A stretch of 64,000 nt of DNA from Candidatus Staskawiczbacteria bacterium RIFCSPHIGHO2_02_FULL_42_22 (GCA_001820175.1 MHOT01000012.1:124-64123); one strand, 5' to 3'. Counted from the first letter of the stretch, positions 35-48,068 are shown. Translations and numbers: made by a program. Notes: generated from the sequence alone by a model not told the origin.

Positions 35-2620
35 ATGAAAGAATTTATACTGTCGCTAACTATGCACAAATTTTTCTCTTTCATCTTTAAACAAAAGAAG
101 ATATTGATTCTTGTGCTTTTGGCATTGGTAATAACAGGAATTATTGCACCTCAAGTTGCTTTTGCCTGGGATTCATGGCAAGACATGTTTAGTGATTGCT
201 TTCTTAACCCCCGTTGCATATTTAGTGAAAAATCTGCTGTAGTAAGAGGTACTGTAGCCGGTATTATTGGCGGACTTATTACTATTATAGGATCCCTTAT
301 TCTTGGAATGACCGCACTCTTTAGTTTTATATCGGGAACCTTACTAAACTGGGTTTTGGTAATTTCGACAAAAGTAAGCTATACCAGCACCGATCCGTTA
401 TATAACCCAGTCATAGCTACCGGCTGGCCCATTGTAAGGGACTTTGCCAATATTATTATTGTGTTAGGCCTTGTTATTATTGCCCTGGCCACCATTTTGC
501 GCTTTAAAAATTATGAAACCCGCCAGCTTTTGGTAAAACTGATCGTTGCCGCCCTGCTCATTAATTTTTCTTTGGTAATCTGCGGCGTAGTTATTGATAT
601 TTCCAATGTGCTTATTTCCTATTTTTTGGGCAACGGCAATGCATGGGCATTTCTTTCCAATGATCAGGGATTCGAGGTTGCGCTAAATTTTTCAAAAAAT
701 GCCGCAAAAGACACCCCCCTTGTTTTATTTTCAAGACTGTTCGCTAATGTATTTTTTAACATTATGCAGGGTGTTATTAATTATCTCTATGTCTTTTTAT
801 TTTTATTTAGAATTTTTGCTCTTTGGGTACTAGTACTTTTATCCCCTCTGGCCTTTGCCTGCTACGTATTCCCCAAAACCAAGACCATGATTTTCGACAA
901 GTGGTTGAATAACTTTTTGCAATGGGCATTTATCGGGGCTCTTGGCGCCATGTTTATTTTCCTGGCAAATAAAATAAATATTGCTATGTCAAAAGCGGGA
1001 ACAGGAATCGCTAACTTTAAATTTCCGGAGGGTAATGGACCCGGTAAGATATTTGATTTTATAGGTAACGATGTTACAAAAATATTTACTTTTTTTGTGC
1101 CGGGAATGTTTTTGGTCATCGGGTTTATTATATCACTGCAGGTTTCAGCCGCTGGGGCCAACTACGCCGTCGCAGGGTTTAAAAGGAGCGGAAATGCAAT
1201 AGCCCGAGCGGGCAAATGGACCAGAAAATTCGCAGCGGATAACATTGGATACAGAGGATATACCGCCACAAGCATAAAAGATGCAGTCGTAGATAGAGCA
1301 ACTAGAATTGGGGAAAGTTTAAGGCTTATTAATAGAGGGACAGCAGATACGAATAAAAAAGTAAGACAATCTGGCAAATTAGATGAAAAGGGACGAGTAG
1401 AACGAGCAAATGATATGAACACTCAGCAGAAACTTGCCGTGGCAAGAGAAACACCATTAACCCAAGCAGCTGGATTAAACCAAGCTGCAGTACTTAAGAG
1501 TATGACCAAAGAAGAGTTTGGCCTACTAAGTAATGATGAGCAAATAAGATTATTAAGAAATAGCGAACAGAACGGTTATGGATTAAAACCACATGAAATG
1601 GTGACTAAAATGAGTACGGCTAATCAAAATCGAGTAGTGCGAGAAGATATGTTTGATTCAAAGACCAGAGGAGAAGCATTAAAATCTTTAGCTGGAAAAG
1701 GGCAAATTAATTCCTCATCGTATAATCCAGCTGTAGCAACATCAGCATTAAATCAGGATGAAATTATTAGAGCAATGCAAGACGCAAGAGATAATGGATC
1801 AGATCTAAAAGACATTATTAGTGGATTAGAAGGACAGGATTTGGCTGACATCATCGGAGAAACTAGAACTGCGGCTGCAATGGGGGAGGAACTTTTTGAC
1901 GGAGCAACAAGGGTTAAATTATTAAAAGCATTGGGCGATAAAAAACAAACTGATTTACTAACACAAGTAGAATTAATGGATGAAATGAGGTTGGCTGCGA
2001 TAAATGGAATGAAATTACCAGATATTGTAGGAAAATTAGATAGTGCAAACCAGGCCCATATCATTGAAAATAATCTATTTAATCCAGAAACAAGAGCTAA
2101 AGTAGTAGAATCACTAGCTAAAAAGGGAAGACTTGACCTTATACCAGTTGCCAGTCGATCAACGGCATTTACTGAAGCCATGGATAATGGAGTTGATGCA
2201 GAAGATTTGGAAAAAGCAGATTACCATGCTGCTGAATTCAATCAAGTTAGAATACAACGACTCATAGCTAACGGCGTTGCTCCAGCCAATGCGCCAACTG
2301 AAGCAAGAAGACAGGTCCTCGATAGTACAATAACTAAAATGGACGGGGATCAACTTCGAGGAATTGACAGAATAGATATTACCGCAGATAGAATTGAAGC
2401 ATTGACTCCGGAAAAAGTACTTGAATTCCGCTATGCTAGCACTGACAGAAGAACGGAAATTAGGACGACAGTAAGAGCAGCCCTTGATACAAAGAGAACA
2501 GCTGCTGATGCGGACTATAACATAGCTCAGGTCGCGGGGGAAGTAGCAAAAGCCGAAAAAGCTCTGGATAAATGGACTAAATTGGATAAGCTAATAAAAG
2601 CAATCGATCTTTTACCATAG
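35..2620 (+). CDS. VirB6/TrbL-like polytopic membrane protein with long hydrophilic C-terminal repeat domain (T4SS-like locus)
   Basis: N-terminal signal/TM then 6-7 hydrophobic helices over ~380 aa (e.g. IIGGLITIIGSLILGMTALF, IIVLGLVIIALATIL, VFLFLFRIFALWVLVLLSPLAF). The C-terminal ~480 aa is hydrophilic with ~40-aa degenerate repeats (ETR..K.L..LG). Placed next to VirB3-like and VirB4 genes. Family assignment by architecture and context only. Confidence 0.45.
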   Translation: MKEFILSLTMHKFFSFIFKQKKILILVLLALVITGIIAPQVAFAWDSWQDMFSDCFLNPRCIFSEKSAVVRGTVAGIIGGLITIIGSLILGMTALFSFISGTLLNWVLVISTKVSYTSTDPLYNPVIATGWPIVRDFANIIIVLGLVIIALATILRFKNYETRQLLVKLIVAALLINFSLVICGVVIDISNVLISYFLGNGNAWAFLSNDQGFEVALNFSKNAAKDTPLVLFSRLFANVFFNIMQGVINYLYVFLFLFRIFALWVLVLLSPLAFACYVFPKTKTMIFDKWLNNFLQWAFIGALGAMFIFLANKINIAMSKAGTGIANFKFPEGNGPGKIFDFIGNDVTKIFTFFVPGMFLVIGFIISLQVSAAGANYAVAGFKRSGNAIARAGKWTRKFAADNIGYRGYTATSIKDAVVDRATRIGESLRLINRGTADTNKKVRQSGKLDEKGRVERANDMNTQQKLAVARETPLTQAAGLNQAAVLKSMTKEEFGLLSNDEQIRLLRNSEQNGYGLKPHEMVTKMSTANQNRVVREDMFDSKTRGEALKSLAGKGQINSSSYNPAVATSALNQDEIIRAMQDARDNGSDLKDIISGLEGQDLADIIGETRTAAAMGEELFDGATRVKLLKALGDKKQTDLLTQVELMDEMRLAAINGMKLPDIVGKLDSANQAHIIENNLFNPETRAKVVESLAKKGRLDLIPVASRSTAFTEAMDNGVDAEDLEKADYHAAEFNQVRIQRLIANGVAPANAPTEARRQVLDSTITKMDGDQLRGIDRIDITADRIEALTPEKVLEFRYASTDRRTEIRTTVRAALDTKRTAADADYNIAQVAGEVAKAEKALDKWTKLDKLIKAIDLLP

Positions 2621-2644
2621 CACTGTTTATTAATTTAAATACAT

Positions 2645-3265
2645 ATGATTGAAGAAAAAAATACAATTATACCTTTTAGTAAGAATGCTACAGATATTCT
2701 TTATGGCATAGAAAAAAAATACAAATTAGAAGAAACTCGAGAGGAAACCATACAAAGGATTCATAATCATAAAATTCACAAAATTAATATTGTGGCTACT
2801 CTTGTAAGGAATTTTATATTGGAAGAAATCTCTAATACAGAATTTCTTGATGCTCTCCATAAAGAGTTGCATATCTCAAAAGAAGCGGTAAAAAATCTAG
2901 CTATAGATATAGTAGATAATTTAATCCCGTTATTAGAAAAAATTCCCGAAGATCAACTGGAAGAATATAATAGAAAAAAACGATCAAAAGAAAAAAATAA
3001 AGAAGCAGATGTTAAGAAAACAGAAAATAAAAAGGGGGAATTTCAAGAACAATTATTAAATAAAATAAGAGGCGATGTAAATATCCCGAAACCCGAACCG
3101 AAAGAAACACCAGCGACGCCCAACCTTAAAAAACCCGAAATTGAAGATGTGGAAGATAATGCAAAGGATATTCAACATGTCCAACAAAAAAAGGAGGAAA
3201 CCGTAGTCCCACCAACGCTAAAAGAAGAAAAGAAGGCAGATCCATACCAGGAACCTGTGGAATGA
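2645..3265 (+). CDS. hypothetical K/E-rich protein
   Basis: Long ORF in coding-dense region; highly charged, no recognisable motif. Confidence 0.3.
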   Translation: MIEEKNTIIPFSKNATDILYGIEKKYKLEETREETIQRIHNHKIHKINIVATLVRNFILEEISNTEFLDALHKELHISKEAVKNLAIDIVDNLIPLLEKIPEDQLEEYNRKKRSKEKNKEADVKKTENKKGEFQEQLLNKIRGDVNIPKPEPKETPATPNLKKPEIEDVEDNAKDIQHVQQKKEETVVPPTLKEEKKADPYQEPVE

Positions 3266-3730
3266 ATTTCTAATTGACCTAATCAAACCCCAATGAACAA
3301 TGAGCCAATTTCTAAAATCTACGACTTAGAAGAAAGAACAGCTAAATTTGGTGAAAACATAATAAAGTTTGCCAGAAAAATACCTAAAGATGTCATTACC
3401 TTACCTTTAATAAATCAGTTAGTAAAATCCGGCACCAGTGTGGGTGCTAATTACTGTGAAGCGGATGATGCTGAATCGAAACAGGATTTTAAACATAAAT
3501 TGGGAATTTGTAAAAAAGAGGCAAGGGAAACAAAACATTGGCTAAGAATGATTGTGATTGCCATACCAGAAATAGAAAAAGAAGCAAAAATACTTTGGCA
3601 AGAAGCTAAAGAATTAAATCTTATCTTTAATGCTATTATTAAAAAATTAAAATAAAGCCATTTTAGACATTCGGTATTCTAAATTAGGATTTGATTAGAA
3701 ATTAGGTTAATTAGAAATTAGAAATTGCAT
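3266..3730. mobile_element. AT-rich inverted-repeat cassette 1 carrying a four-helix-bundle gene
   Basis: Left arm ttctaattgacctaatcaaa (3268-3290) and right arm tttgattagaaattaggttaattagaaattagaa (3690-3726) are inverted copies flanking ORF 3293..3655. Confidence 0.5.
3293..3655 (+). CDS. four-helix-bundle protein (PF05635 / 23S rRNA intervening-sequence protein / Avd-like family)
   Basis: ~120 aa. Family hallmarks present: EERT.KFGENII.F, LINQLV.SGTSVGANYCEA and KQDFKHKLGICKKEARETKHWL. Confidence 0.65.
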   Translation: MNNEPISKIYDLEERTAKFGENIIKFARKIPKDVITLPLINQLVKSGTSVGANYCEADDAESKQDFKHKLGICKKEARETKHWLRMIVIAIPEIEKEAKILWQEAKELNLIFNAIIKKLK

Positions 3731-3756
3731 ATTTTTAATATCATTAAAAATTAGCG

Positions 3757-4146
3757 ATGGCACAATACTCCACTCCACAATTTACTGAAAGCGAAGGGAA
3801 AATTATTTCTTTCCTCACCTTTCGCCAATTTTTTGTCCTCGTTGGAGGAGGAGCGGTTTGTTTTGCGCTGTATTACACCCTGCCGTTTGCTCTTTTTTTG
3901 ATTTTAGGGATAATGGTGGCCACCATAACCGCGGCCATCGCATTTTTAAAAGTAAATAATACTTCAGTAGTAACCCTGGTACTTCACTTTATTACCTTTT
4001 CAATCGCCTCAAAAACGTATGTATGGAAGAAAAAAGAATCGGTATATCCTTTTGCTAGTAAGCGGTACGAGGCCAAGGATATGGAAGTGGGCGGCAAAAC
4101 CGCGCTGGATGCTACTAAAAAAATAGTAGAATACCGCAAGAAGTGA
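3757..4146 (+). CDS. VirB3/PrgI-like small membrane protein (T4SS-like locus)
   Basis: 129 aa with two adjacent TM helices (FFVLVGGGAVCFALYYTLPFALFLILGIMVATITAAIAF). Lies immediately upstream of VirB4, as VirB3/PrgI does in Gram-positive-type T4SS. Confidence 0.35.
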   Translation: MAQYSTPQFTESEGKIISFLTFRQFFVLVGGGAVCFALYYTLPFALFLILGIMVATITAAIAFLKVNNTSVVTLVLHFITFSIASKTYVWKKKESVYPFASKRYEAKDMEVGGKTALDATKKIVEYRKK

Positions 4147-4149
4147 ATT

Positions 4150-4650
4150 TATTTTTATTATGAATCTCGAATCTTGTATCTTGTAGCTTGAATAGAATAA
4201 AGAATCATGAATGATGACAATAAAATCAGAAGGTTTACCGATCTTCATGCTTGGCAAGAGGGGCATAAGTTAGTATTAATGGTCTATAGAAATACTGAAA
4301 CATTTCCCGATAAAGAAAGGTTTGGGATAATAGACCAAATGAGACGAGCTGTAATTTCTTTGACTTCTAATATAGCGGAGGGATTTTCAAGGAGGTCTTC
4401 AAAAGAAAAGAACAGGTTTTATTGCATGGCCCAGGCATCATTAGTAGAATTACAAAATCAACTTATTATTTCTAGAGATATTGGTTATTTATCAAATGAT
4501 GAATTTAAAATAATTGCAGATCAGTCAGTGGTGGCAAATAAACTGTTAAATGGACTCTTAAAAGCTACTAAAGATAAAAAATTTGAATCTTAGATTCTTA
4601 ATTCAAAATTCTATTCAAGCTACAAGATACAAGATTCAAGATTCACACAC
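4150..4650. mobile_element. AT-rich inverted-repeat cassette 2 carrying a four-helix-bundle gene
   Basis: gaatctcgaatcttgtatcttgtagcttgaatagaat (4160-4197) is mirrored by attctattcaagctacaagatacaagattcaagattc (4603-4641), flanking ORF 4207..4593. Confidence 0.55.
4207..4593 (+). CDS. four-helix-bundle protein (PF05635 family)
   Basis: 128 aa. Family motifs present: LTSNIAEGFSRRS..EK.RFY..A.AS..ELQNQL. Confidence 0.6.
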   Translation: MNDDNKIRRFTDLHAWQEGHKLVLMVYRNTETFPDKERFGIIDQMRRAVISLTSNIAEGFSRRSSKEKNRFYCMAQASLVELQNQLIISRDIGYLSNDEFKIIADQSVVANKLLNGLLKATKDKKFES

Positions 4651-4653
4651 ATT

Positions 4654-5328
4654 ATGGCAGAGCAATCAACTCAAGATTTTTTAGAATTCAAAGACATTAA
4701 AGAAGGTATTGTTATCCTTAAAAACAACGATATTCGGGGCGTTTTAATGGTCTCTTCCATTAATTTTGCCTTAAAGTCCGACGATGACCGCGCGGCCATC
4801 ATTTATGCCTTCCAGAATTTTTTAAATTCCCTGGATTTTCCCTGCCAGATTGTGGTGCAGTCAAAAAAAATCAACATCACCCGCTACTTAGACACCCTGC
4901 GCGCTCTGGAAGAAAAGCAAACCAACGAACTGCTTAAAATCCAAACTGCTTCATACATAGAGTTTATAAAAAACCTGGTGCAGGGTGATGCGGTTATGAC
5001 CAAAAACTTTTACGTTGTGGTGCCTTACGCCCTTACGGCAATCTTGGGTACTGGTGCTATTACCAAACAGTTCAATATTCCGGATTTATTGGGCAAAAAA
5101 AATAAGGCCGGCGGGCCGGTGCAATCCATCAGCGACGAGGACTTTGAAAAATGCAAAAACCAGCTTTGGCAACGAATGGAATTTTTGGCCCTTGGCTTAA
5201 AGCGTTGCGGATTAGACAGCGTGCCGCTTACCACCCCGGAATTAATTGAATTGTTCTGGTCACTACACCACCCAAGCGAAGCGGAAGTGGGGTATTCACC
5301 GGAGATAATACCGGAATTATTGAAATAA
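4654..5328 (+). CDS. VirB4-family ATPase, N-terminal segment (split gene)
   Basis: Shows the DIKEGIVILKNNDIRGVLMVSSINFALKSDDDRAAIIYAFQNFLNSLDFPCQIVVQSKK pattern typical of the N-terminal region of Gram-positive-type VirB4 (TcpF/Orf16-like). The stop codon abuts the left arm of cassette 3. Confidence 0.5.
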   Translation: MAEQSTQDFLEFKDIKEGIVILKNNDIRGVLMVSSINFALKSDDDRAAIIYAFQNFLNSLDFPCQIVVQSKKINITRYLDTLRALEEKQTNELLKIQTASYIEFIKNLVQGDAVMTKNFYVVVPYALTAILGTGAITKQFNIPDLLGKKNKAGGPVQSISDEDFEKCKNQLWQRMEFLALGLKRCGLDSVPLTTPELIELFWSLHHPSEAEVGYSPEIIPELLK

Positions 5329-5808
5329 TTCCGAATTATCAATTATCAATTTTCAAGTATCAATCAAGTTTTAAATTACTAAATTATCAATATGGAAAAG
5401 ATATTTGACCTAGAGGAAAGAACTATGGTTTTTGCAGAAAATATAATTGATTTAGTAAGATCAATAAAAAGTGACTCGGTAAATAATAGAATTATCACCC
5501 AATTAGTAGGTTCAAGTGGCTCTATCGGAGCAAATTATTGCGAAGCCACAGAAGGTGAAAGTAAAAAAGATTTTATTCATAAAATTGGCATCGCCAAAAA
5601 AGAAATAAAAGAAACCAAGCACTGGTTGCGATTATTAGCCAGAGCTAATCCTGAGAAAAAAGAAGAAATAAGAAAATTATGGAAAGAAGTACAAGAACTG
5701 CTATTAATATTCTCTAAAATAATCAGAAGCAGTAAAACCAACGCGATTGAAAATTAATTACTTGATCATTTATTGATACTTGAAAATTGATAATTGATAA
5801 TTAAGATC
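5329..5808. mobile_element. AT-rich inverted-repeat cassette 3 carrying a four-helix-bundle gene, inserted between the two VirB4 segments
   Basis: aattatcaattatcaattttcaagtatcaat (5335-5366) is mirrored by attgatacttgaaaattgataattgataatt (5771-5802), flanking ORF 5392..5757. Confidence 0.55.
5392..5757 (+). CDS. four-helix-bundle protein (PF05635 family)
   Basis: 121 aa. EERT..FAENII, SIGANYCEATEGESKKDFIHKIGIAKKEIKETKHWL; paralog of 3293..3655. Confidence 0.65.
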   Translation: MEKIFDLEERTMVFAENIIDLVRSIKSDSVNNRIITQLVGSSGSIGANYCEATEGESKKDFIHKIGIAKKEIKETKHWLRLLARANPEKKEEIRKLWKEVQELLLIFSKIIRSSKTNAIEN

Positions 5809-7611
5809 ATGGCTATTCCATTCTTCAAAAATAAAAAGGGGACAGAAATAGAAGAAGAAAAAATCTTTGGCCAAGACACCCTTAACATCAAGGACATCAT
5901 TGCTCCTCCTTACATTGGCATTACCCAGGATAATATTAAGCTGGGAGAAAAAATAGTAAAGTCATTTTTTATTTTCTCCTACCCCCGGTATATAAATACC
6001 GGCTGGCTGTCTCCGGCCATCAATCTGAATGTTCCCATGAACATTGCTTTTTTCATCCACCCGGTTGACAGTTCCCAGATTTTACGGAAATTGCGTTCAA
6101 AGGTGACCCAAGTTTCTTCAGAATTAATAGAGCGCCAGGAAAAGGGGCTTATCCGCGATCCGGCCCTTGAAACATCTTACCAAGACATTGAAAATTTACG
6201 GGATAAAATCACCACCGCCCAGGAAAAAATGTTTCAGTTCGGGCTGTATATTACTTTATTTGAAGAAAATCCTCAAACCCTCAAAGAAACTGAGGTAACC
6301 CTACGGTCTATTTTTGAATCACGGCTTATTTACATAAAACCGGCGCTCTTTAAACAAAAAGAGGGGTTTATTTCCACCCTTCCCTACGGTCTGGATATGC
6401 TTTCGGTTCACGTGCCCATGGACACCGACCCTTTATCCACTTCATTTCCTTTTATTTCGTTTGACTTAAGCTCAAATGAAGGGATTTTATACGGCATCAA
6501 CAACCATAATAATTCCCTGGTGCTCTTTGACCGCTTCACGCTGGAGAACGCAAACATGGTGGTCTTCGCAAAATCGGGATCCGGCAAGTCCTACGCCATA
6601 AAATTGGAAATTTTGCGCTACCTAATGTGGGGAATTGATGTTATTGTGGTAGACCCGGAAAACGAGTATGAATTTTTATCGGATGGCGTTGGGGGCGACT
6701 TTTTCAACATTTCCCTTACTTCAGATACCCATATTAACCCCTTTGACTTGCCTATGCCCGGAGCGGAAGAAAACCCCGAAGATATTTTGCGCTCTAACAT
6801 TATTAACTTGGTGGGGCTGTTGCGAATTATGCTTGGCGGATTGAGTGCAGAAGAAGATAGCATTGTCGACGAAGCCCTCACTGAAACCTACGCCATCCGC
6901 GATATTACGGCCCAATCAAACCCCGCCACCTGGCAGGAAAACATACCCGTTCTGTCCGACTTTGCGGAAATTTTGGAAAGCATGGCGGGAGCCGAATCGC
7001 TGGCCAGGCGCCTTAAAAAATTCACCCAGGGAACTTTTTCTGATTTTTTCAACCAAAAAACCAATATTGCCATGGATAAGCCATTTATTGTCTTTGGCAT
7101 CCGCGATATGGAAGAATCACTGCGGCCGGTGGCCCTTTTTATGGTCATGCGATACATTTGGAACACTATTCGCACCCACATCAAAAAGAGGATTTTAGTG
7201 GTGGACGAGGCCTGGTGGCTGACCCAGTCCGAAGACGGCGCTTCGTTTTTATTTAGCGTGGTAAAACGCGGCCGAAAATACTGGCTGGGGGTTACCACCA
7301 TCACCCAGGACGTAGAGGACTTTATGAAATCAAGTTATGGTAAGGCCATTATTACGAATTCCTCGCTGCAATTATTACTAAAACAATCACCGGCCACCAT
7401 TGACGTGATGCAAAATATATTCAATTTAACTGAACAGGAAAAAATGCTTCTTTTGGAAGCCAATGTAGGGGAGGGACTCTTTTTTGCCGGTAAAAAACAT
7501 GTCAGTATTAGTATAAAAGCCAGCTACACCGAAGACCAGATTATTACTACCAACCCGGGGGAGGTGGAAAAGATAAAGGAAGCTAAAAGGAAACTAAAGG
7601 AAAATCTATAA
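5794..7611 (+). CDS. virB4: VirB4/TraC/CagE-family T4SS ATPase (C-terminal, catalytic segment)
   Basis: Walker A VVFAKSGSGKSY, Walker B RILVVDEAWWL, motif VTTITQD. The N-terminal IIAPPYIGITQDNIKLGEKIVKSFFIFSYPRYINTGWLSPAINLN matches the conserved VirB4 region. The actual start is possibly the ATG at 5809. Confidence 0.8.
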   Translation: MIIKIMAIPFFKNKKGTEIEEEKIFGQDTLNIKDIIAPPYIGITQDNIKLGEKIVKSFFIFSYPRYINTGWLSPAINLNVPMNIAFFIHPVDSSQILRKLRSKVTQVSSELIERQEKGLIRDPALETSYQDIENLRDKITTAQEKMFQFGLYITLFEENPQTLKETEVTLRSIFESRLIYIKPALFKQKEGFISTLPYGLDMLSVHVPMDTDPLSTSFPFISFDLSSNEGILYGINNHNNSLVLFDRFTLENANMVVFAKSGSGKSYAIKLEILRYLMWGIDVIVVDPENEYEFLSDGVGGDFFNISLTSDTHINPFDLPMPGAEENPEDILRSNIINLVGLLRIMLGGLSAEEDSIVDEALTETYAIRDITAQSNPATWQENIPVLSDFAEILESMAGAESLARRLKKFTQGTFSDFFNQKTNIAMDKPFIVFGIRDMEESLRPVALFMVMRYIWNTIRTHIKKRILVVDEAWWLTQSEDGASFLFSVVKRGRKYWLGVTTITQDVEDFMKSSYGKAIITNSSLQLLLKQSPATIDVMQNIFNLTEQEKMLLLEANVGEGLFFAGKKHVSISIKASYTEDQIITTNPGEVEKIKEAKRKLKENL

Positions 7612-7721
7612 TTAAATTCGAAGCACGAAATCCGAAATACGAAACAAATTCAAATGTTCAAAATCTAAATTTTCAAAACTTGTTTCGAATTTCGACATTC
7701 GAATTTCGAGTTTGGTAAGTT
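7612..7721. repeat. AT-rich inverted repeat spacer
   Basis: cgaaatccgaaatacgaaacaa mirrored by ttgtttcgaatttcgacattcgaatttcg; no ORF inside. Confidence 0.5.
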
Positions 7722-8324
7722 ATGTCTAGCGAAGTCACATCGCCACAAGGATTATTAATGCTGATTATTGCCGGCTGCTTTGATATAGCCGCCATTCTTA
7801 TATTTCTTATTGAGGTGTGGGTTGATTTGGGAATTTTCAGCACTTTGGTTGGTTGGACTGGGTTGTTGTTTGTTTTGACATGGGCATTCCTTACCGGACG
7901 CATGTCAGTAACCGATATAACCAACATATTAAAAAGAAAATCAAAAAAGGGAAGTGGGTCGCCAGAAAAAATAGCCGGTTCGAGCGATATGAAGGATTGG
8001 AAACAAAATAAAGACGGGGTATATGAATTACAAAATAAAGAGTCACCAGAAACCGATGATGCAAATAATCAAGGAACCAGTGGGCTTAGTGGGTTTACAA
8101 AGAAATTTGGGTGGGGTTTAATTGTAGAATTAGTTCCATGGATTAGTGCGGTTTTACCAATGCTTACTATGCTTGTTTGGAGATTACTACGAGATGATAG
8201 TGGAGGAGTCAGCCAAAACAACGACTCCCAAGAAGAAGGCCAGTCAGGCACCTTAAAAATGCCGGATAAAAAACCAACCAGCGCGCCGCAAACGCCCGCC
8301 GCACCGGCTGAAAAAGCGGCGTAA
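7722..8324 (+). CDS. hypothetical membrane protein (3-4 TM, disordered Pro/Ala-rich tail) within T4SS-like locus
   Basis: Two N-terminal TM helices, a hydrophilic linker and a third TM (FGWGLIVELVPWISAVLPMLTMLVW). Confidence 0.35.
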   Translation: MSSEVTSPQGLLMLIIAGCFDIAAILIFLIEVWVDLGIFSTLVGWTGLLFVLTWAFLTGRMSVTDITNILKRKSKKGSGSPEKIAGSSDMKDWKQNKDGVYELQNKESPETDDANNQGTSGLSGFTKKFGWGLIVELVPWISAVLPMLTMLVWRLLRDDSGGVSQNNDSQEEGQSGTLKMPDKKPTSAPQTPAAPAEKAA

Positions 8325-8342
8325 AACTTGAGATTGCTTCGG

Positions 8343-8532
8343 CCGCGGCCCTATGGACATCACATCCAGAAACCGCACTCCAAGTCTTGCCGGATTTGCC
8401 AATCTTGGGCAGTTTTCACAAAAAATTTGTTCGGCGTAGCTACGGCTAGGCCTTACAAATTTTTTGCTCCAAGCCGCCCAATATTGCGAAACCGTCGGCA
8501 ACTTTAGTGCGGTTTCTGGATGTGATGTCCAT
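8343..8532. repeat. family-B MITE-like element (27-bp TIR atggacatcacatccagaaaccgcact), copy 1
   Basis: Perfect terminal inverted repeats. The internal sequence is the reverse complement of copy 32318..32497. Flanked by TA on both sides. Confidence 0.7.
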
Positions 8533-8540
8533 AACAACCC

Positions 8541-8686
8541 TAGATTGCTTCGTCGTCACGCCTGCGGGCGCAACTCCTCGCAATGACGGGGGACACAGAA
8601 TTCGCGTCATTGCGAGGAGCCCGCAGGCGACGAAGCAATCTAACGGTGAACGGAGATTGCTTCGCTGCGGCTCGCAATGACGGATT
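8541..8686. repeat. GC-rich palindromic element (GTCATTGCGAGG...GAAGCAATCT...AGATTGCTTC...CCTCGCAATGAC family), tandem pair
   Basis: Nested inverted repeats read directly: cgtcattgcgaggagcccgcaggcgacgaagcaatctaacggtgaacggagattgcttcgctgcggctcgcaatgacgg. Confidence 0.7.
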
Positions 8687-8773
8687 GATGACGAGCTTAA
8701 AACATTATTCACAGTTCAAGGAAAATATGATGTGTTATAAAATTTCCGAATATGGTAAAATATTCGAATAGTT

Positions 8774-11700
8774 ATGATTAAAAAACCGAAAAAACTAATT
8801 TATTTCTTTGCCGTTTTTTTGATAGGTTTTTTACTGTTAACGGTAAGCTATAGCGCTTTGGCGCTGGAAGTGCAATATCCTCACATTCCGGGATTTTCGG
8901 ATATTAAAAATGGAAGCACCCTACCCGATTATATTAATTATTTCTTTGGCTTTATTATGGTAACGGCCGGAATCATTGCGGTTATTTCCATTGCCATTGG
9001 TGGCCTGCGCATGTTAATTTCTGCCGGTAACCCGGGGGCCCGCGGCGAGGCGATGGACCGGATTTTTGGAGGAGTGCTAGGTATTATTTTATTGATGTTT
9101 TCCTACGTTATTTTAGAGACCATTAATCCCCAGCTGGTGAATTTGCAAGAAACAAGTGTAGTGTCTCTAAACAAAGGAATGTTTTTAGGAGAGCCGAAGG
9201 AGGGACAGGCCATGAATAATAATTCACACTCCATTACGGCTAATTTCGCCCAAAAATTACTAATAAATAACCCCCTTGCGGTTGCAATCGCGAAAGCCGA
9301 TGGAAGTTTCTATAGCCAATTTAATATTGAAGATTATGATATCACCCCATTGCCCGAATCCATAATTAATAGAACTTTCAAGCCGGGGAGTTTTGTTTGG
9401 AATAATTGTCCGGGGTGTGTTGAAGGAGACGGTCCGGGTAAATTTCTGCGGGTGACATACCGTTCTGAGGGCGAAGAGTTTAACGATGACGATACTGCGG
9501 CAAAGCGTGTTCATTTACCAGACATAGAAACTACTGACGAAAATTTTGACGAGGTTAGCTTCTCTCTTTATGGAGTAAAAGACCTTGATTGGGCCGAAAA
9601 AACGCCGGGGATCTATCTTTTTAAGACCGATGATTGCACGGGCCTGCCCACCCGTGTCATTACTAGCAGCGGGCAAATTCCCCCCGGTTTTCAAAACCAG
9701 GTGCGTTCAGCCCAGATTCTTAATGGGAATGAAGAGGGAGACCCCCGCTACGGATTTATTTTAAACACCAGCCCCGATTTAAAGGGCACCTGCAGCCAGC
9801 CGTTTATGAATTATGAGGCCAGCGACCCTGATTACGAGGACGGAGAAGACCATGATTCCGAAGACGAAGCCCCGTGTTTTCCAATTATTAACGACTCACC
9901 TTCGTGCGATTTTACGGTCCCCCAAACCCATAATGTATGCGTTAACCAAACCTGTACCCAAGTAGACGGAGTGGGGGACAATGCCTGCAACACTAGTTCC
10001 GACTGCCTGCCCCAAACCCACAACGAATGCGTCAACCAGGCCTGTCAAGAGATAAGCGGAGCTGGCGATAATAAATGTACCAGCAACAGCGAATGTCTTC
10101 CTACGTGTAATACCGATACACAAAAGTGCGAGGTGGGGGGCGGAGGAAAGAGTTGTAATTCTGATTCAGAATGTACAACTTCTGTTCATAACGAATGCGT
10201 CAACCAGGCCTGCCAAGAGGTAAGTGGAGCTGGCGATAATAAATGTACCAGCAATAGCGAATGTCTTCCTACGTGTAATACCGATACACAAAAGTGCGAG
10301 GTGGGGGGCGGAGGAAAGAGTTGTAATTCTGATTCCGAGTGCACACCGCAACTGGCAGTATTGACCATAAAAAAAGTGGTTGATAATGCGGGGGTTGGGA
10401 ACTCTAATTGCGAAAGTTTTCAGACCTATCGTCTATTTGATTATAATCACTCTGAATGGCTTGGGCTTAACCTATGTCCATCGGGTACGGTGGATATACC
10501 GCTTGAAGCAGGTTATTATGCATTTATGGAAAATGAGCGCAGGCCCCCCTACAAGGCAACTTATGAAGGCGCATGCCCCAGCACCAATATTATCCAAGTA
10601 ACCGAAGGCCAAAATGCCACCTGTACGGTTACTAATACATATAGTTATGGATGCAATAGCCAAAACCAATGTGTTGAAGGGGGCACGGTTAAAGGTTGTG
10701 ATATTGCCAACGGTGATGCCGACTGCACTGCGCCAACTGGCAAATGTAGCACTAACCCTAGCCAGACCTATACTTGTTCTCCGTCAAATAATGGCGCCCC
10801 TTGCACCTCTGCCAATGTATGTAAACCAAGATGCAATAGCCAAAACAAATGCGTTCAGGGGCTTACTGAAGGGCCAGAATGCAGTAATCTTGGCGGTGAC
10901 TGTACTGCATCCATTCTTGTAACAAAAGAATGTGATCCGGTTGGTGATCAAGGGCGCTTTATTATGAGAAAGGACGGTCAGAATATGAATGGCCCAAACA
11001 CTCCGGATATAGGATGTGGCGAAAGCGCAAGCGCCCAAGTAACACCGGGAAGAGATTATATCATAAGCGAAGCTCCTGGAAACAGTACCACTGATCTCTC
11101 TAAATATGATACAGTTATTGGCGGGGAATGCGACCGAAGCGGCCGATTTACTGCGAAGGTAGGTGTTAATAGGTGTACCATCACCAATAACAAGAAACAT
11201 GCGTATTTGCAAATAAAAAAAGAGTGCAGTCCCACAGATGATACTGGTCACTTTGACTTGCGAATTGATGGCATAACGACTTATAGTCAGAATATGGATT
11301 GTGTAAATAATACCACTACTCCACGTAGAGATGTGGGTACTGGAACCCATACCGTCAGTGAACTTGCGGGAAGTAATACCAATCTTTTCGATTACACCAC
11401 TACTATTGATTGCGGTTCGGGGGCGACCAGCGGAACTAGTAAAACTATCACCCTGCAAAAAGATGATGATAAACTCTGCACTATTACCAACACTAAAAAA
11501 CCACCCGGTTCCGCGTCTATAAAAGTAGTAAAACAGTGTAATCCGAGTAGCGACCCAGGTCGTTTTAAAGCAACTATTAATGGCGAAATTGCCAGCAACC
11601 AAGAATTAACATGTACCGGCCCCACGTCATCGGTAACTATTAATGTATCACCCGGAAATTATCTGGTAGGTGAAGTTGCTGGCAGTGGTACCAACCTCTC

Positions 11701-13414
11701 CCAATACAACCCACCGGTGTTTGGTGGGGACTGCACTCAAAGTGGACAAATTATTGCGGAAGTAGGAAAAACGAATTCATGTATTATTACTAATAGCCCC
11801 AAAACTGCTTCATCAGCAACCCTGCGTTTTCATAAGACCGTATTTAATAGCGACAACAATGGTAGTCCCGATTATTCTCCTAATGATTTCGGACCATTTA
11901 CCCTGCAAAATACATCTCGTTCATATACATTTAATGTAGATGCAAGCGGCGATGCCATAATTACTAATATTGTACCCGATACATATTCTATTATTGAAAA
12001 TTATCAAGATTATTATGAGGCAACTTATACCGGAACCGGTGGAGCATGTAACGGCAATAATATCATACCTTTAGGACCAGGAGAAACAAAGGAGTGCATT
12101 ATTTTTAATAGGTGGGAGGGAGGAATATTAGTGTTACATAAAATTATAAAGGATGGTGATTTAAAAAGCGAAGATTTTCTGCCATTTATTTACGATGCAG
12201 ACTTGGATTATGGTCAATTCTATACTTGGGGAGTACCAATACCAGTTTATGCTGGTCATCAGTTGTACGTCTCTGAAATCATACCTGCTAATTCTAATTA
12301 TACCGGCCAATTTGCTCCCCCAAGCGATTGCGATGCAAATGGAGGCATTATTCTTGACGTAGACCAATGGGCGGATTGCAATATTACTAATACCTATCAA
12401 CCTAGCCCATCAGACACAATGTTAACGGTAATAAAAAAAGTAGTGGGAGGACCACTGGATGGGCAATCAAGCCAGTTCCGGATGACCATCGCTGGTTCTG
12501 CTGGCCCTGCCGTACAGGGAGATAATTCTTTTCCTGGCACAGATGACCCCGGCACCCCAAAGATGTTATCTATAACTGGCCCTACCGACTACCGCGTCGA
12601 AGAATCATCGGTCAGCGGTTACACAATGACATATTATAATAATTGCTCAGGTACCATAAACCCGGGGGATCACATCATCTGCAGTATTACTAATACTTAT
12701 CAATTAGGAGCAGGATTAATAAACCCTCAAAACGCTATTTTGGCTAATGTTTCAACCAGTATTATTAATAAAATAAGGCCAGAAATAATTTCTCTTGCCT
12801 CACCCATGCGCATCCGGCTTGCCGCCACGGTTGATGATAGGGGAGGCGTCGGTAGCGACCCTATCGCATTCCCCGCCAGTTATATTTATGTTATTAAGGG
12901 TTACAACCCTGGCAATCCGGAGTTTGATACCCCGGGAACCGGGGTAAGCTTGTATGCCGGCACGCGCTACAAATACCTTCCACCTTCCACTATTAAACAA
13001 CACTTTATTTTAGATGGGACAACTGATTGCGACGACACCTATCAAACCTGCTGGCCCTACACCAACACCGACGATTTATTAAAAGAAATTGGCGATATCC
13101 AGCCGGGTTTTGGTCAAAACCAGGATATCTGCAAGCGAACCTATATTTACCCCTGCACCCAGTACATCGACCACCAGGGAAGCTACCTTACGGTTTTATA
13201 CACCCAAAACCAGGGAAACCCCTACAACCAAACCTGCAGCACTTTCATTAATTCGGTTGACTTTATCAGGGACACCAATAATATTCCCATAGGTAGCACA
13301 CCTATTAACAATCCCTTGCCCACCAATTCTAATATTGATGTAAATAGCGATATTAGTATTTTTGATAATAATAAATACGTCTGCAGAGTGGATATCTTCC
13401 CAATACTGCCGTAG
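8774..13414 (+). CDS. giant surface protein: VirB2/TrbC-like pilin N-terminal module fused to ~1400-aa cysteine-rich and repeat-rich extracellular region (putative T4SS-anchored adhesin)
   Basis: N-terminus has signal/TM, helix YINYFFGFIMVTAGIIAVISIAIGGLRMLISAG, short charged loop NPGARGEAMDRIF and a second helix GGVLGIILLMFSYVIL (VirB2/TrbC-like). These are followed by an acidic linker and four CxNQxCQxxxGAGDNKCTSNSECLP modules. After that come ten or more ~100-aa beta-rich repeats ending in C.ITNT. Confidence 0.5.
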   Translation: MIKKPKKLIYFFAVFLIGFLLLTVSYSALALEVQYPHIPGFSDIKNGSTLPDYINYFFGFIMVTAGIIAVISIAIGGLRMLISAGNPGARGEAMDRIFGGVLGIILLMFSYVILETINPQLVNLQETSVVSLNKGMFLGEPKEGQAMNNNSHSITANFAQKLLINNPLAVAIAKADGSFYSQFNIEDYDITPLPESIINRTFKPGSFVWNNCPGCVEGDGPGKFLRVTYRSEGEEFNDDDTAAKRVHLPDIETTDENFDEVSFSLYGVKDLDWAEKTPGIYLFKTDDCTGLPTRVITSSGQIPPGFQNQVRSAQILNGNEEGDPRYGFILNTSPDLKGTCSQPFMNYEASDPDYEDGEDHDSEDEAPCFPIINDSPSCDFTVPQTHNVCVNQTCTQVDGVGDNACNTSSDCLPQTHNECVNQACQEISGAGDNKCTSNSECLPTCNTDTQKCEVGGGGKSCNSDSECTTSVHNECVNQACQEVSGAGDNKCTSNSECLPTCNTDTQKCEVGGGGKSCNSDSECTPQLAVLTIKKVVDNAGVGNSNCESFQTYRLFDYNHSEWLGLNLCPSGTVDIPLEAGYYAFMENERRPPYKATYEGACPSTNIIQVTEGQNATCTVTNTYSYGCNSQNQCVEGGTVKGCDIANGDADCTAPTGKCSTNPSQTYTCSPSNNGAPCTSANVCKPRCNSQNKCVQGLTEGPECSNLGGDCTASILVTKECDPVGDQGRFIMRKDGQNMNGPNTPDIGCGESASAQVTPGRDYIISEAPGNSTTDLSKYDTVIGGECDRSGRFTAKVGVNRCTITNNKKHAYLQIKKECSPTDDTGHFDLRIDGITTYSQNMDCVNNTTTPRRDVGTGTHTVSELAGSNTNLFDYTTTIDCGSGATSGTSKTITLQKDDDKLCTITNTKKPPGSASIKVVKQCNPSSDPGRFKATINGEIASNQELTCTGPTSSVTINVSPGNYLVGEVAGSGTNLSQYNPPVFGGDCTQSGQIIAEVGKTNSCIITNSPKTASSATLRFHKTVFNSDNNGSPDYSPNDFGPFTLQNTSRSYTFNVDASGDAIITNIVPDTYSIIENYQDYYEATYTGTGGACNGNNIIPLGPGETKECIIFNRWEGGILVLHKIIKDGDLKSEDFLPFIYDADLDYGQFYTWGVPIPVYAGHQLYVSEIIPANSNYTGQFAPPSDCDANGGIILDVDQWADCNITNTYQPSPSDTMLTVIKKVVGGPLDGQSSQFRMTIAGSAGPAVQGDNSFPGTDDPGTPKMLSITGPTDYRVEESSVSGYTMTYYNNCSGTINPGDHIICSITNTYQLGAGLINPQNAILANVSTSIINKIRPEIISLASPMRIRLAATVDDRGGVGSDPIAFPASYIYVIKGYNPGNPEFDTPGTGVSLYAGTRYKYLPPSTIKQHFILDGTTDCDDTYQTCWPYTNTDDLLKEIGDIQPGFGQNQDICKRTYIYPCTQYIDHQGSYLTVLYTQNQGNPYNQTCSTFINSVDFIRDTNNIPIGSTPINNPLPTNSNIDVNSDISIFDNNKYVCRVDIFPILP
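10008..10340 (+). repeat. near-perfect tandem duplication (~150 bp x2) inside the adhesin CDS
   Basis: cacaacgaatgcgtcaaccaggcctgtcaagag...gattcagaatgtaca is repeated with about 7 substitutions. It encodes a duplicated HNECVNQACQE.SGAGDNKCTSNSECLPTCNTDTQKCEVGGGGKSCNSDSEC module. Confidence 0.8.
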
Positions 13415-13416
13415 TA

Positions 13417-13525
13417 TTACCACTCGTCATTGCGAGGGTTCGAAACCCGAAGCAATCTCCACCTCTCGTCATTGCGAGCCACGGCGAAGTAATCTTATAG
13501 CGATCCCTCACGCCTCGTCATTGCG
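13417..13525. repeat. GC-rich palindromic element, interrupted by IS insertion
   Basis: cgtcattgcgagggttcgaaacccgaagcaatctcc...cgtcattgcgg, then the IS. The remainder of the element (tcattgcgaggagtcctgagc...) resumes at 14597. Confidence 0.6.
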
Positions 13526-14596
13526 GGTATAAAGGTAGGTAACTTGTTGCTAATTTTTGAAGTAGATATACCACTTAAAGAAATCCTTTCGCCTGCCCTT
13601 TAACAATCCGCGATGTTGTCGGTAAATAATTTTTAATCTTGAAAAATATCCCTCGATCTTGTTCGTGGTTGAAGGAATATTTTTATCTTTTAAATAATGG
13701 AACATGCTCGGCAGAGCGTTTATCAATAAATTTCTGGTTGCTTTAAGATCGCTGAAAACTTTATCCTTTGAAGACAGGAGGTTCACCGATTTTCCGTATT
13801 TCCTTTCCCATTTTTGAAAAGTATTTAAGAATATTTTTTTACCTCTTTCATTTTTAATTTTTGTAACAGATAGCAATATATCTCTTAATTTCTTGCTGGC
13901 CTCCAGCTTTGGATTTCTTCTTAACCATGATAACCCCTGCCGTTGAATGTGTGCCAAACATCTTTGTATGATAATATCTGGCCAGACATCTTTAATGGCC
14001 CTCATTACGCTTGTATTGCCATCTACCGTGATAGCCATGGGCATAATGCCGCAGCTCTTTGACTCTTCAAAAATTGATCTTGCATATTCGTAATTTTCTC
14101 TGATACAATATTTATGATTTACGATTTTACCATTCGAATTGTCTATTAGCACCATTAGACAATTTTCATGTTTGAAATATGTCCCATCAAAAAGTAAATA
14201 TTTTATTTGATGGTAATTTAGAGTTTTTTTATCCGGCGCTTTGTTCATCCAAAAAGATAATATTTGTTTTATCTTCCAAATTCCACGACGGCTAATACTG
14301 ACTAATTGCCTTGCCGAATAACCCTCAACAATCCACAGCTCAAACCATTTTCTTTCGTTAAATTCCTTGTTCTTGCGATTATGAAAAGTGTAGGTGTGCT
14401 TACAAATTTTACATCTATACCTCTGGTAACCGCATGAAGTGCGACCAAATAATTTAACATTCAAAGAACCACACTTTAGACAACTTTTTTTTCATAATAT
14501 TGAACTGATTTGATATTATTCCAGATTTTAATTGTAATTTACTCTCAAATTAGCACGAAATCCGCATTTTTAGCAACAAGTTACCTACCTTTATAC
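13526..14596 (-). mobile_element. IS1595-family-like insertion sequence with 27-bp perfect TIRs and 8-bp target duplication
   Basis: TIR gtataaaggtaggtaacttgttgctaa at 13527-13553, with its reverse complement at 14570-14596. The direct repeat tcattgcg occurs at 13518-13525 and 14597-14604. There is a single transposase ORF. Confidence 0.7.
13550..14464 (-). CDS. transposase (N-terminal zinc ribbon plus DDE domain; IS1595-like)
   Basis: C..C...C..C near the N-terminus (CGYQRYRCKICKH). DDE-region motifs LFDGTYF, ITVDGNTSVMRAIKDVWPD and TNKIEGYFSRLK. Length 304 aa. Confidence 0.7.
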   Translation of the reverse strand: MNVKLFGRTSCGYQRYRCKICKHTYTFHNRKNKEFNERKWFELWIVEGYSARQLVSISRRGIWKIKQILSFWMNKAPDKKTLNYHQIKYLLFDGTYFKHENCLMVLIDNSNGKIVNHKYCIRENYEYARSIFEESKSCGIMPMAITVDGNTSVMRAIKDVWPDIIIQRCLAHIQRQGLSWLRRNPKLEASKKLRDILLSVTKIKNERGKKIFLNTFQKWERKYGKSVNLLSSKDKVFSDLKATRNLLINALPSMFHYLKDKNIPSTTNKIEGYFSRLKIIYRQHRGLLKGRRKDFFKWYIYFKN

Positions 14597-14744: not shown

Positions 14745-15245
14745 TTATTTGGGACTTATCACAATCCGCCGCTCCGCCCCCTCACCCTGGCTTTCAACTA
14801 TTACCTCTTTATGTGACTCTAATTCAGTATGCACGATTCTCCTTTCATATGAAGACATTGTGGGCAGGGTTATGGGTTTTCCTTGCGCCAGGGCCTCGGA
14901 CACCGAATCATTGGCTATTTTTTTTATGTATTCAATTTTATTTTTTTTGTAGTCGTTAATATCTAAATATACATAAAAAAATTTCCCCAATTTTTTGGCC
15001 AGCATAATTCGCAGCAGGTAATTGAGGTCAAATAGCGTTTGGCCATTTTGGCCAATCAGTATTTGCGGCTCATCCAGCCGCACCTCTATGGTAACACTAT
15101 CAACCACTTCTTTTTGATCGGCATTATCTTCTGGGGCCTGGCCGGCCTTATGCTCAATATTAATGTCTTGAACTGGTAGCGTCAATTTTTGGAAAAATTC
15201 TGACACCGTTTCGCGTATATTTTTTATGTCTTGATCGTCTATCAT
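14745..15245 (-). CDS. khpB: RNA-binding protein Jag/KhpB (KH + R3H domains)
   Basis: C-terminal R3H motif ITLPTMSSYERRIVHTEL. Conserved position downstream of yidC. Confidence 0.7.
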   Translation of the reverse strand: MIDDQDIKNIRETVSEFFQKLTLPVQDINIEHKAGQAPEDNADQKEVVDSVTIEVRLDEPQILIGQNGQTLFDLNYLLRIMLAKKLGKFFYVYLDINDYKKNKIEYIKKIANDSVSEALAQGKPITLPTMSSYERRIVHTELESHKEVIVESQGEGAERRIVISPK

Positions 15246-15253
15246 AATTAATA

Positions 15254-15410
15254 GACCTGTTGCGTATTAAGGATTTACTGCAAATTGCATATTTCGGCCA
15301 TAAATTTGCTATAATTTTTCGGCGGGCCCTCTAGGCAAGCCGAAAAATTCTATCAAATTTCTGGCTCAAAATCTTCAATTTTCGTAACAATCCTTAATAC
15401 GCAACAGGTC
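15254..15410. repeat. family-C MITE-like element (conserved core ttttcggcgggccctctaggcaagccgaaaaattctatcaaattt, self-complementary termini), copy 1
   Basis: Termini are gacctgttgcgtattaaggatt and aatccttaatacgcaacaggtc. TA on both flanks. Confidence 0.65.
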
Positions 15411-15451
15411 TAATTCTTTAAATGTAACCTCTTGCGCCTCTCCCATATATA

Positions 15452-15550
15452 CTCGTCGTCATTGCGAGCGAGCGGCCGCAGCCGCGAGCGCGGCAATCTC
15501 CTTTTTTTTACGGGGATTGCTTCGGGCCTGCGGGTCCTCGCAATGACGAG
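15452..15550. repeat. GC-rich palindromic element overlapping the 3' end of yidC
   Basis: cgtcgtcattgcgagcgagcggccgcagccgcgagcgcggcaatctcc...ggggattgcttcgggcctgcgggtcctcgcaatgacgag. The yidC stop codon (15508) lies inside the element. Confidence 0.65.
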
Positions 15551-30476: not shown

Positions 30477-30480
30477 GTTT

Positions 30481-48017: not shown

Positions 48018-48068
48018 AAAAAGCTACGCGTTACACGTTTCGTTACACGATCGTTATACGCGAAAACT

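Follow-up and report, generated by a model that had tools for sequence, protein, structure and literature searches.

The type IV secretion systems (T4SSs) described in Patescibacteria comprise genes for VirB4, TrsD, PrgI, VirB6 and VirB2-like proteins, mostly without a relaxase; TrsD is a separate gene, and dnaA, dnaN, rnpA, rpmH and ksgA are commonly found near virB4 in these classes (PMC12102498). The T4SS is essential in Southlakia epibionticum (PMC10633639), and its role in Saccharibacteria is termed "completely unknown" in a review (PMC11665869). In the survey of these systems, matches to the family PF18895 were counted as VirB2-like pilins, the small size of VirB2 was mentioned and no adhesins were detected (PMC12102498). 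The locus considered here occupies positions 35-13414 of a 64,000-nucleotide (nt) stretch of DNA from Candidatus Staskawiczbacteria bacterium RIFCSPHIGHO2_02_FULL_42_22 (GCA_001820175.1, MHOT01000012.1:124-64123), the whole of which is referred to as the window. It encodes a T4SS of this published kind, and its only pilin-like gene is a giant open reading frame (ORF) of 1546 amino acids (aa) at 8774-13414 (+), whose product carries a VirB2-like module followed by some 1420 residues predicted to lie outside the cell. The explanation favoured here, with a probability of roughly 0.7 for the whole, is that this product is a pilin-tagged surface protein displayed by the T4SS for contact with a host cell.

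The giant ORF opens with a signal-peptide-like hydrophobic helix (residues 1-30, 8774-8863, +), recognised from hydrophobicity, conservation and a structural model, which ends in SALA/LE, where the signal peptide is probably cleaved; relatives show little or no variation at A30, L31, E32, Y35 and P36. The VirB2-like pilin module itself (residues 29-122, 8858-9139, +) consists of two long hydrophobic helices with a short charged loop between them and a conserved INP motif at the end, in which N118 and P119, at the edge of the module, show at least 90% conservation. Hydrophobic segments are found at residues 5-34, 53-86 and 94-122 and none lies beyond residue 122, and in the AlphaFold (AF2) model, which covers residues 1-365, helices span 5-27, 50-82 and 87-117, with a predicted local distance difference test score (pLDDT) of 80-89 for the hairpin. 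A preliminary description of this DNA had read a VirB2/TrbC topology into the N-terminus and proposed comparisons by profile and by structure. The profile search bears out the VirB2-like call, as residues 49-115 match PF18895 (T4SS_pilin) with 28.9 bits when the full-length protein is scanned and with 34.9 bits for the module by itself, against a cut-off of 26.6, whereas PF04956 (TrbC/VirB2) does not match the window protein and the structural comparison with solved pilins gave generic helical hairpins only. NF045849, a pilin-like conjugal transfer family, scores 30.9 bits on the module, under its cut-off of 40 bits. Among relatives, PF18895 is above cut-off in all 25 modules tested and is matched by 74 of 83 proteins; PF04956 is matched by one of the 83 (6.7e-8) and by one of the 25 modules (0.024). 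PF18895 can be tied to VirB2 because some Saccharibacterial pilins match both families, and the sequence-based link between the window protein and VirB2 is thus made up of Pfam and NCBIfam membership, gene context, the rare PF04956 cross-matches in relatives and these double-matching Saccharibacterial pilins. The module occurs once in the whole window. Eleven contigs code for the identical 1546-aa protein; the three listed stem from different samples (one JGI metagenome, two ENA assemblies), so the ORF is not an assembly artefact.

The loop between the two helices, SAGNPGARGEAMDR, holds positive charges and is probably cytoplasmic; by the positive-inside rule, the ~1420 C-terminal residues would thus lie outside the cell, a location that fits that of the 66 cysteines of the protein, every one of them beyond residue 211. 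This region had been described as Cys-rich and beta-rich, which it is, but the two conserved non-repeat domains that it also contains, at residues 133-365 and 1314-1546, had not been set apart. The first (9170-9868, +) is common to homologs of ~500 aa. It is followed by five tandem 4-Cys modules of ~28 aa each (residues 366-524, 9869-10345, +), revealed by a pattern scan (C-x4-6-C-x8-9-C-x5-C) and clear at residues 389-523; by a SpaA-like repeat, R1 (residues 525-627, 10346-10654, +), which matches PF19403 SpaA_2 below threshold over the full model length (E = 4.4e-4, 21.2 bits against a cut-off of 25); and by a second Cys-rich set of about three modules (residues 628-713, 10655-10912, +), for which the pattern scan matched two stretches within residues 627-713 and the third was read by eye. 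Six further SpaA/Cna-B-like beta repeats, R2-R7 (residues 714-1313, 10913-12712, +), were delimited from sub-threshold matches and from a motif, C-x-[IV]-[ITF]-N, with which each of the seven ~100-aa repeats closes. Their family matches are all sub-threshold (SpaA_3 at E 0.003-0.01, 16-18 bits against 24; DUF7601 with 25.5 bits against 27; Cna_B at E 0.21), SpaA_2 reaches 2.6e-75 in one of the 83 relatives scanned, and the long relatives P0036 and P0091 align to the R2-R7 region with 25-31% identity. Earlier counts of four Cys-rich modules and of ten or more beta repeats are therefore revised to five clear modules plus about three more, and to seven repeats.

The C-terminal ectodomain block (residues 1314-1546, 12713-13411, +) aligns to the C-termini of relatives of ~480-2057 aa, for example to residues 329-482 of P0009, and has at its end the shared family motif (Y)R(M/V)DI(F/I)P; in the window protein the C-terminus reads ...KYVCRVDIFPILP, ending ...RVDIFPILP, and contains no LPXTG sorting signal. 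Compared with its relatives by BLASTP, the giant resolves into a core (residues 1-~355 and ~1360-1546), colinear with proteins of ~480-530 aa such as P0009 and P0011, and an insertion of ~1000 aa. Judged from these alignments, it is a ~500-aa family core that gained a ~1000-aa stalk insertion made of the Cys modules and the seven repeats. A near-identical variant of 1412 aa, P0001, is 134 aa shorter, and shorter across the Cys-module region 366-524; it shares 95% identity with the window protein over residues 1-524 and 88% over residues 472-1546, and the overlap of these alignment blocks suggests that it has fewer Cys-rich modules, that is, strain-level variation in module number.

The fusion is widespread. 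Residues 1-145 of the giant ORF retrieved nothing in a word-indexed homology search; an exhaustive HMMER search with them was required (E <= 1e-3), which gave 13,662 related cluster representatives. The best 150 of these have a median length of 500 aa, 140 being longer than 200 aa (10 of them longer than 1000 aa) and 10 being of 200 aa or less. In addition, 79 related species-level Staskawiczbacteria and Parcubacteria loci were fetched through their VirB4 and annotated with the window proteins. All 113 complete pilin-module ORFs in these loci exceed 200 aa (median 510 aa, range 237-2095 aa, 25 above 1000 aa), and the question raised by the preliminary description, namely whether related genomes hold the same fusion or separate genes, is answered by fusion throughout the 79 loci, with no complete pilin-module ORF of 200 aa or less. 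The gene order VirB6 - orf206 - PrgI - TrsD - VirB4 - pilin-module gene(s) recurs in ~70 species-level genomes, and one to four pilin-module genes stand after VirB4 in related loci. As far as these sequences tell, the pilin-ectodomain fusion is lineage-wide and the normal form of the T4SS "pilin" here; the covalent fusion that had been singled out as non-standard is real, but it is the usual state in this lineage. It is undescribed in the literature searched, though abundant in sequence databases. Identity to relatives falls from VirB4 (78-86%) through TrsD (64-82%) and PrgI (44-55%) to the N-terminal domain of VirB6 (27-46%), and is 43-50% for the pilin module and 27-40% for the ectodomain core; the ectodomain evolves quickly, a gradient that may reflect host-facing evolution.

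The cluster around this gene comprises ten ORFs, all on the + strand, of which those first reported lie at the coordinates and in the single orientation given: an extended VirB6-like protein, a lineage-specific 206-aa protein, PrgI/VirB3, TrsD, VirB4, a lineage-specific 200-aa membrane protein and the 1546-aa ORF, together with three 23S_rRNA_IVP four-helix-bundle genes flanked by inverted repeats, which, like TrsD, had been overlooked. The ATPase motor of the system is a VirB4 of 600 aa (5809-7611, +, ATG at 5809), identified by NF045971, PF19044, PF12846 and PF01935. As initially described, it is a VirB4 ATPase with both Walker motifs: NF045971 (CD1110 family) is matched with 363.7 bits against a cut-off of 325, over model positions 166-734, the solved VirB4 domain 4ag5 of the Protein Data Bank (PDB) is matched at 2.1e-42, Walker A (AKSGSGKS) can be read off the translation, and Walker B (ILVVDE) is at residue 462. 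By its family assignment VirB4 is of the monoderm type. It is devoid of the N-terminal domain, which is supplied by TrsD, a free-standing homolog of that domain (224 aa, 4654-5328, +) covering model positions 4-118 of NF045971 and 101-233 of NF045975; its match to NF041427 (TrsD) is under the family cut-off (E = 9.3e-6), PF26593 (TraC-like) is its precomputed annotation, and its slot adjoining VirB4 is kept in related loci. TrsD and VirB4 together tile one full VirB4 model (positions 4-118 and 166-734). An interpretation of 4654-5328 and 5809-7611 as a single VirB4 gene split by a cassette or an intron was rejected because TrsD is known as a free-standing protein, is also separate in cassette-free loci, and no intron was found by an Rfam scan of the window, in which the sole RNA is a transfer-messenger RNA (tmRNA; 61868-62217, -). 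In five related genomes (L072, L073, L077, L078 and L079), the VirB4 ORFs are ~1261-1268 aa long, ~660 aa longer than here, and are matched by the query as two separate blocks, the tblastn alignment being confined to residues ~249-598; the ATPase may thus contain a large insertion, perhaps an intein.

Two further components are membrane proteins named by family. The PrgI/VirB3-like two-transmembrane protein (129 aa, 3757-4146, +) was called correctly at the outset: PF12666 is matched with 28.5 bits against a cut-off of 27, the hydrophobic stretch spans residues 16-67 and the gene position is conserved across related loci. The extended VirB6/TrbL-like polytopic protein (861 aa, 35-2620, +), assigned from homologs and hydrophobicity, has ~7-9 hydrophobic segments within residues 13-376, followed by a ~430-aa hydrophilic tail of helical repeats. 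Here the original call stands in part: scans of the protein itself against Pfam and NCBIfam gave no direct match, but homologs with 27-46% identity carry PF04610 (TrbL) and PF19590 (TrbL_3), 19 of 41 homologs match PF04610 on rescanning, and the weak top match of the family profile in the PDB is TrwI/VirB6 (7o3v_F, E = 0.027), so that the protein is probably, through its homologs, a VirB6. The conserved 206-aa hydrophilic protein (2645-3265, +) occupies the same slot in relatives, its homologs being placed after VirB6 and before PrgI in many of the related loci; it matched no Pfam or NCBIfam family at threshold and no solved structure. The 200-aa membrane protein (7722-8324, +), identified from hydrophobicity and slot, corresponds to the protein with three to four transmembrane segments earlier noted after VirB4: it has about three hydrophobic segments, within residues 7-57 and 132-156, and homologs that hold its position in a small number of related loci (L008, L012, L016 and L038), and matched neither a Pfam or NCBIfam family nor a solved structure. 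Promoter and terminator scans stayed at chance level.

Downstream of the cluster come a transposase, then jag, yidC, rnpA and rpmH, and divergent dnaA and dnaN. In one relative, recovered from the same sample, the cluster is bordered upstream by ksgA and a HEPN/nucleotidyltransferase pair and at its other end by jag-yidC-rnpA. The nearest relatives of VirB4 (78-86% identity) belong to Candidatus Staskawiczbacteria and other Parcubacteria. Relaxase and coupling protein (VirD4) families were absent from every window ORF scanned with the family libraries. The preliminary statement that relaxase, VirD4 and VirB11 are all missing holds for the first two in the ORFs scanned, but one T2SSE-family ATPase, of the family that includes VirB11, lies at 29163-30557 (-), 16 kb off the cluster; it is presumed to be PilB-like. 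Because gene set, dnaA-proximal site and lack of a relaxase match the published description (PMC12102498), the locus is of the Patescibacteria type, and the early reading of a minimal Patescibacteria-type T4SS, not a conjugation module, is upheld by these features and by the missing coupling protein. The locus is a chromosomal, origin-proximal, non-conjugative Patescibacteria T4SS, an already-known system whose dnaA-adjacent position and lack of a relaxase have been published (PMC12102498, PMC10633639). It comes from a groundwater Staskawiczbacteria-like Parcubacterium, and the T4SS is derived from monoderm conjugation machinery.

In the favoured explanation, the 1546-aa product would enter the membrane in a Sec-dependent manner by means of its signal peptide and its VirB2-like helical hairpin, and the TrsD/VirB4 ATPase, with PrgI and VirB6, would handle this hairpin as other T4SSs handle VirB2. 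The hairpin would then be either drawn out into a short fibre or kept at the VirB6 platform, and the ectodomain, with its crystallin-like head domains, its Cys-rich modules and its seven SpaA-like stalk repeats, would be shown to the host cell, as the adhesin that surveys missed as a separate gene. Peptides fused to the C-terminus of F-pilin are displayed, which provides a precedent. The surface filament carrying its own adhesin, proposed in the preliminary description, is a hypothesis. Three fates may be envisaged for the hairpin, as part of a decorated fibre, as an anchor at the VirB6 platform or as a module separated by processing at the INP boundary. The size of the pilin-module proteins in this branch, their fast-evolving ectodomains and the crystallin-like and SpaA-like parts or, in relatives, cell-wall hydrolase domains point to host contact and envelope remodelling as what the T4SS delivers, and the ectodomains are targets for binding and localisation work.

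Several observations weigh against this explanation. Polymerisation, VirB4-dependent handling and adhesion are all inferred from sequence, and a canonical VirB2 helix may have little steric room for subunits with 400-1400 extra residues. The pilin-module profile found no match to solved VirB2/TraA pilins among PDB sequences, and fold searches with the module returned generic helical hairpins only. The resemblance of the head domains to crystallins is at the level of the fold and comes from the model of a 30%-identical homolog, not from the window protein, whose own, less confident model did not recover it; Foldseek with the homolog model against the PDB gave nothing at E <= 0.001, and the ~500-aa family profile matched neither a crystallin nor a pilin among PDB sequences. 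Finally, 22 of the best 150 relatives (P0002-P0008, P0013, P0067 and others) have 2-6 tandem pilin modules per chain, an arrangement more in keeping with a membrane platform than with a subunit of a pilus.

The last point leads to the alternative that survives best, tentative as it is: the pilin module would be a general T4SS sorting or anchoring tag, no pilus would be formed, and VirB4/VirB6 would assemble or display tagged ectodomains in or on the envelope. Within 83 close relatives, the module is fused to SLT (6 proteins), Peptidase_M15_4, NlpC/P60, CHAP, SpaA and crystallin domains, VanY and Peptidase_C39_2 are further domains seen among pilin-module relatives, and no free-standing short pilin was found in the 79 related loci or in the window; the tandem-module relatives and the hydrolase fusions would favour a role as tag or anchor. 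Against it, the Saccharibacterial members of PF18895 are small, essential, free-standing pilins (PMC10633639), and short pilins may lie elsewhere in the genome, outside the window. A possible but doubtful extension holds that the Parcubacteria-type T4SS builds no small-pilin pilus at all, that the hairpin tag lets TrsD/VirB4-VirB6 install large ectodomains, the whole acting as a display or attachment organelle, and that cassettes of the intervening-sequence (IVS) type, described below, colonise and possibly segment the operon mRNA. If this were true, the essential relaxase-less T4SS of epibionts would be a surface-display or attachment organelle, whose cargo under the tag hypothesis would be crystallin/SpaA adhesin-like proteins and, in relatives, SLT, M15, NlpC/P60 and CHAP cell-wall hydrolases.

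An improbable alternative is that the giant protein is a precursor, cut near INP so that a small VirB2-like pilin polymerises and the ectodomain is shed or re-attached. The propilins RP4 TrbC and T-pilin VirB2 are known to be processed at the C-terminus, the conserved N118 and P119 mark the module boundary in the window protein, and ~10 of the best 150 of the 13,662 relatives, 117-198 aa long, stop soon after INP; however, the locus has no conserved protease gene, tandem-module proteins would need several cuts, and the C-terminal motif and ectodomain core are kept in hundreds of relatives, which argues for selection on the ectodomain itself. Less probable again is a hairpin that merely anchors an ordinary surface adhesin, functionally unrelated to the neighbouring T4SS genes: SpaA-like and Cys-rich modules are generic parts of surface proteins, and a structural match to VirB2 could not be demonstrated, but this sits poorly with strict adjacency to VirB4 in ~70 species-level genomes, with the uniform PF18895 matches of the 25 modules and with the finding that S. 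epibionticum requires both the T4SS and the small pilins of that family (PMC10633639). A decayed integrative conjugative element in place of a resident cellular system, suggested by the transposase fragment directly downstream (13550-14464, -) and by a VirB4 type derived from monoderm conjugation systems (PMC12102498), was considered and rejected as very improbable, since the same slot (ksgA ... jag-yidC-rnpA-rpmH-dnaA) holds the cluster in a relative whose locus lacks the transposase, dnaA, dnaN, rnpA, rpmH and ksgA are reportedly frequent near virB4 in these classes, all ORFs are intact, VirB4 is conserved at 78-86%, and relaxase, coupling protein and integrase families were not found in the window ORFs scanned.

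Three intergenic cassettes, each with a gene for a four-helix-bundle protein, interrupt the cluster. Cassette 1 (3265-3719, +; gene 3293-3655) matches PF05635 with 52 bits and TIGR02436 with 75 bits and is bounded by the inverted repeats I5/I6 (3265-3301 and 3676-3719). Cassette 2 (4161-4645, +; gene 4207-4593; PF05635, 109.7 bits; inverted repeat I1) has 52-nt arms that are 88% complementary and an RNA fold of -132.5 kcal/mol (z = -6.0), the terminal stem closing the whole cassette, and cassette 3 (5334-5802, +; gene 5392-5757; PF05635, 64.3 bits; inverted repeat I2), between TrsD and VirB4, has 52-nt arms with 83% complementarity and a fold of -103.9 kcal/mol (z = -5.4). These two folded cassettes are closed by stems of ~37-40 bp; the arm sequences differ among cassettes, so that pairing is shared and sequence is not. 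In related loci (L004-L080), four-helix-bundle genes are found in different intergenic positions or are missing, and 26 of 36 are flanked by inverted repeats, against 1 of 66 PrgI and 1 of 74 TrsD genes taken as controls. The IVS of the Coxiella 23S rRNA is 428-444 nt long, has a 28-bp stem with an S23p ORF in its loop and is cleaved by RNase III (PMC4990558). The cassettes resemble 23S rRNA IVSs in size (~450-490 nt) and in having a ~120-aa PF05635 ORF looped out by a long terminal stem, and the folding energy of cassette 2 is similar to that of the Coxiella burnetii IVS (-143 kcal/mol; PMC4990558), but they are intergenic in a protein-coding operon instead of residing in an rRNA helix, and the window holds no rRNA. 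Speculatively, RNase III cutting of the cassette stems would segment the operon transcript. A fourth, truncated four-helix-bundle-like frame (48006-48281, +) lies by the start of uvrB and is related to the 4207-4593 product (phmmer E = 3.3e-9). In locus L083, a small PDDEXK_3 gene (15215-15613) occupies the PrgI-TrsD slot, where the window has a four-helix-bundle cassette, and a HEPN/nucleotidyltransferase pair (8388-9079) lies ahead of VirB6; small selfish-looking genes would seem to accumulate in this T4SS operon.

The 449 nt that separate the 200-aa gene from the pilin gene hold a palindromic repeat cluster (8330-8683, no strand assigned), detected by repeat scans, in which a perfect 28-nt inverted repeat (8352-8379 and 8506-8533) encloses a second hairpin (8419-8466); in many related loci, too, VirB4 and the first pilin gene are ~350-500 nt apart. 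A dispersed short element made of GATTGCTTCG, a GC-rich hairpin and CTCGCAATGAC occurs in eleven copies in the window, where shuffled sequences lead one to expect none: 8543-8587, 8606-8640 (-), 8655-8681, 13426-13457 (-), 15515-15547, 28001-28046 (-), 38435-38481 (-), 38496-38522, 40186-40218, 55081-55107 (-) and 55122-55156. Three copies lie upstream of the giant ORF, as part of the palindromic cluster, and the copy at 13426-13457 (-) lies 12 nt past its stop; several are in inter-ORF gaps, often as inverted pairs, and the element looks like a REP/MITE-type repeat (repetitive extragenic palindrome or miniature inverted-repeat transposable element). Immediately 3' of the giant ORF stands the Mutator-family transposase fragment (304 aa, 13550-14464, -), which matches PF00872 with 26 bits over model positions 205-315 of 379 and is not present at the matching position in L083. 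Elsewhere the window encodes housekeeping functions (RuvABC, UvrB, IF3, a Mur ligase, tmRNA and others), and four of its ORFs have no Pfam match. One is at 30481-31572 (-); the other three, at 40302-44597, 44678-45859 and 51307-53010 (+), are large and K/E-rich (1431, 393 and 567 aa), the first two of them sitting in strong positive GC and AT skew, the GC skew being ~0.32 at 42-46 kb.

Among known systems, microbial beta-gamma-crystallins (Protein S, spherulin 3a, clostrillin, nitrollin) show no sequence match to the window protein or to the family profile. Sortase-assembled pilins and MSCRAMM stalks (SpaA/Cna-B prealbumin-like) have, like the window protein, tandem beta repeats of ~100 aa, with sub-threshold similarity, but here there is no sortase signal, and the inserted repeats have a conserved ectodomain block of a pilin-module protein on either side. 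Gram-positive conjugation systems (PrgB of pCF10; TrsD/TrsE of pGO1) have in common with this locus the monoderm VirB4 family, PrgI and TrsD homologs and a presumed need for adhesion; they lack VirB2-like pilins and use an adhesin anchored to the wall through LPXTG, whereas the window protein, without LPXTG, presumably uses its pilin hairpin as the anchor. With the VirB2/TrbC/TraA pilins of the Agrobacterium VirB, R388 and F systems it shares a signal peptide, two hydrophobic helices, a charged loop and a VirB4/VirB6 cluster. Mature pilins of that kind, however, have ~70-120 residues and a separate adhesin (VirB5), whereas here ~1420 residues are fused C-terminally and there is no VirB5; judged as a canonical small propilin (~100-150 aa), the 1546-aa protein has the topology and not the size. 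The closest likeness is to the T4SSs of Patescibacteria (Quinonero-Coronel et al. 2025, PMC12102498; Wang et al. 2023, PMC10633639), which have the same monoderm (MPF-FATA) VirB4, a separate TrsD, PrgI/VirB3 and, probably, VirB6, and likewise PF18895 gene(s) adjoining VirB4, no relaxase and dnaA/dnaN/rnpA/rpmH as neighbours. The fusion leaves this classification unchanged, and the locus is a known system; the difference resides in the pilins, of which Southlakia epibionticum ML1 has six small ones (SEML1_0014-0019, 126-185 aa), in contrast to the 237-2095 aa of the pilin-module proteins encoded here and in the 79 related loci.

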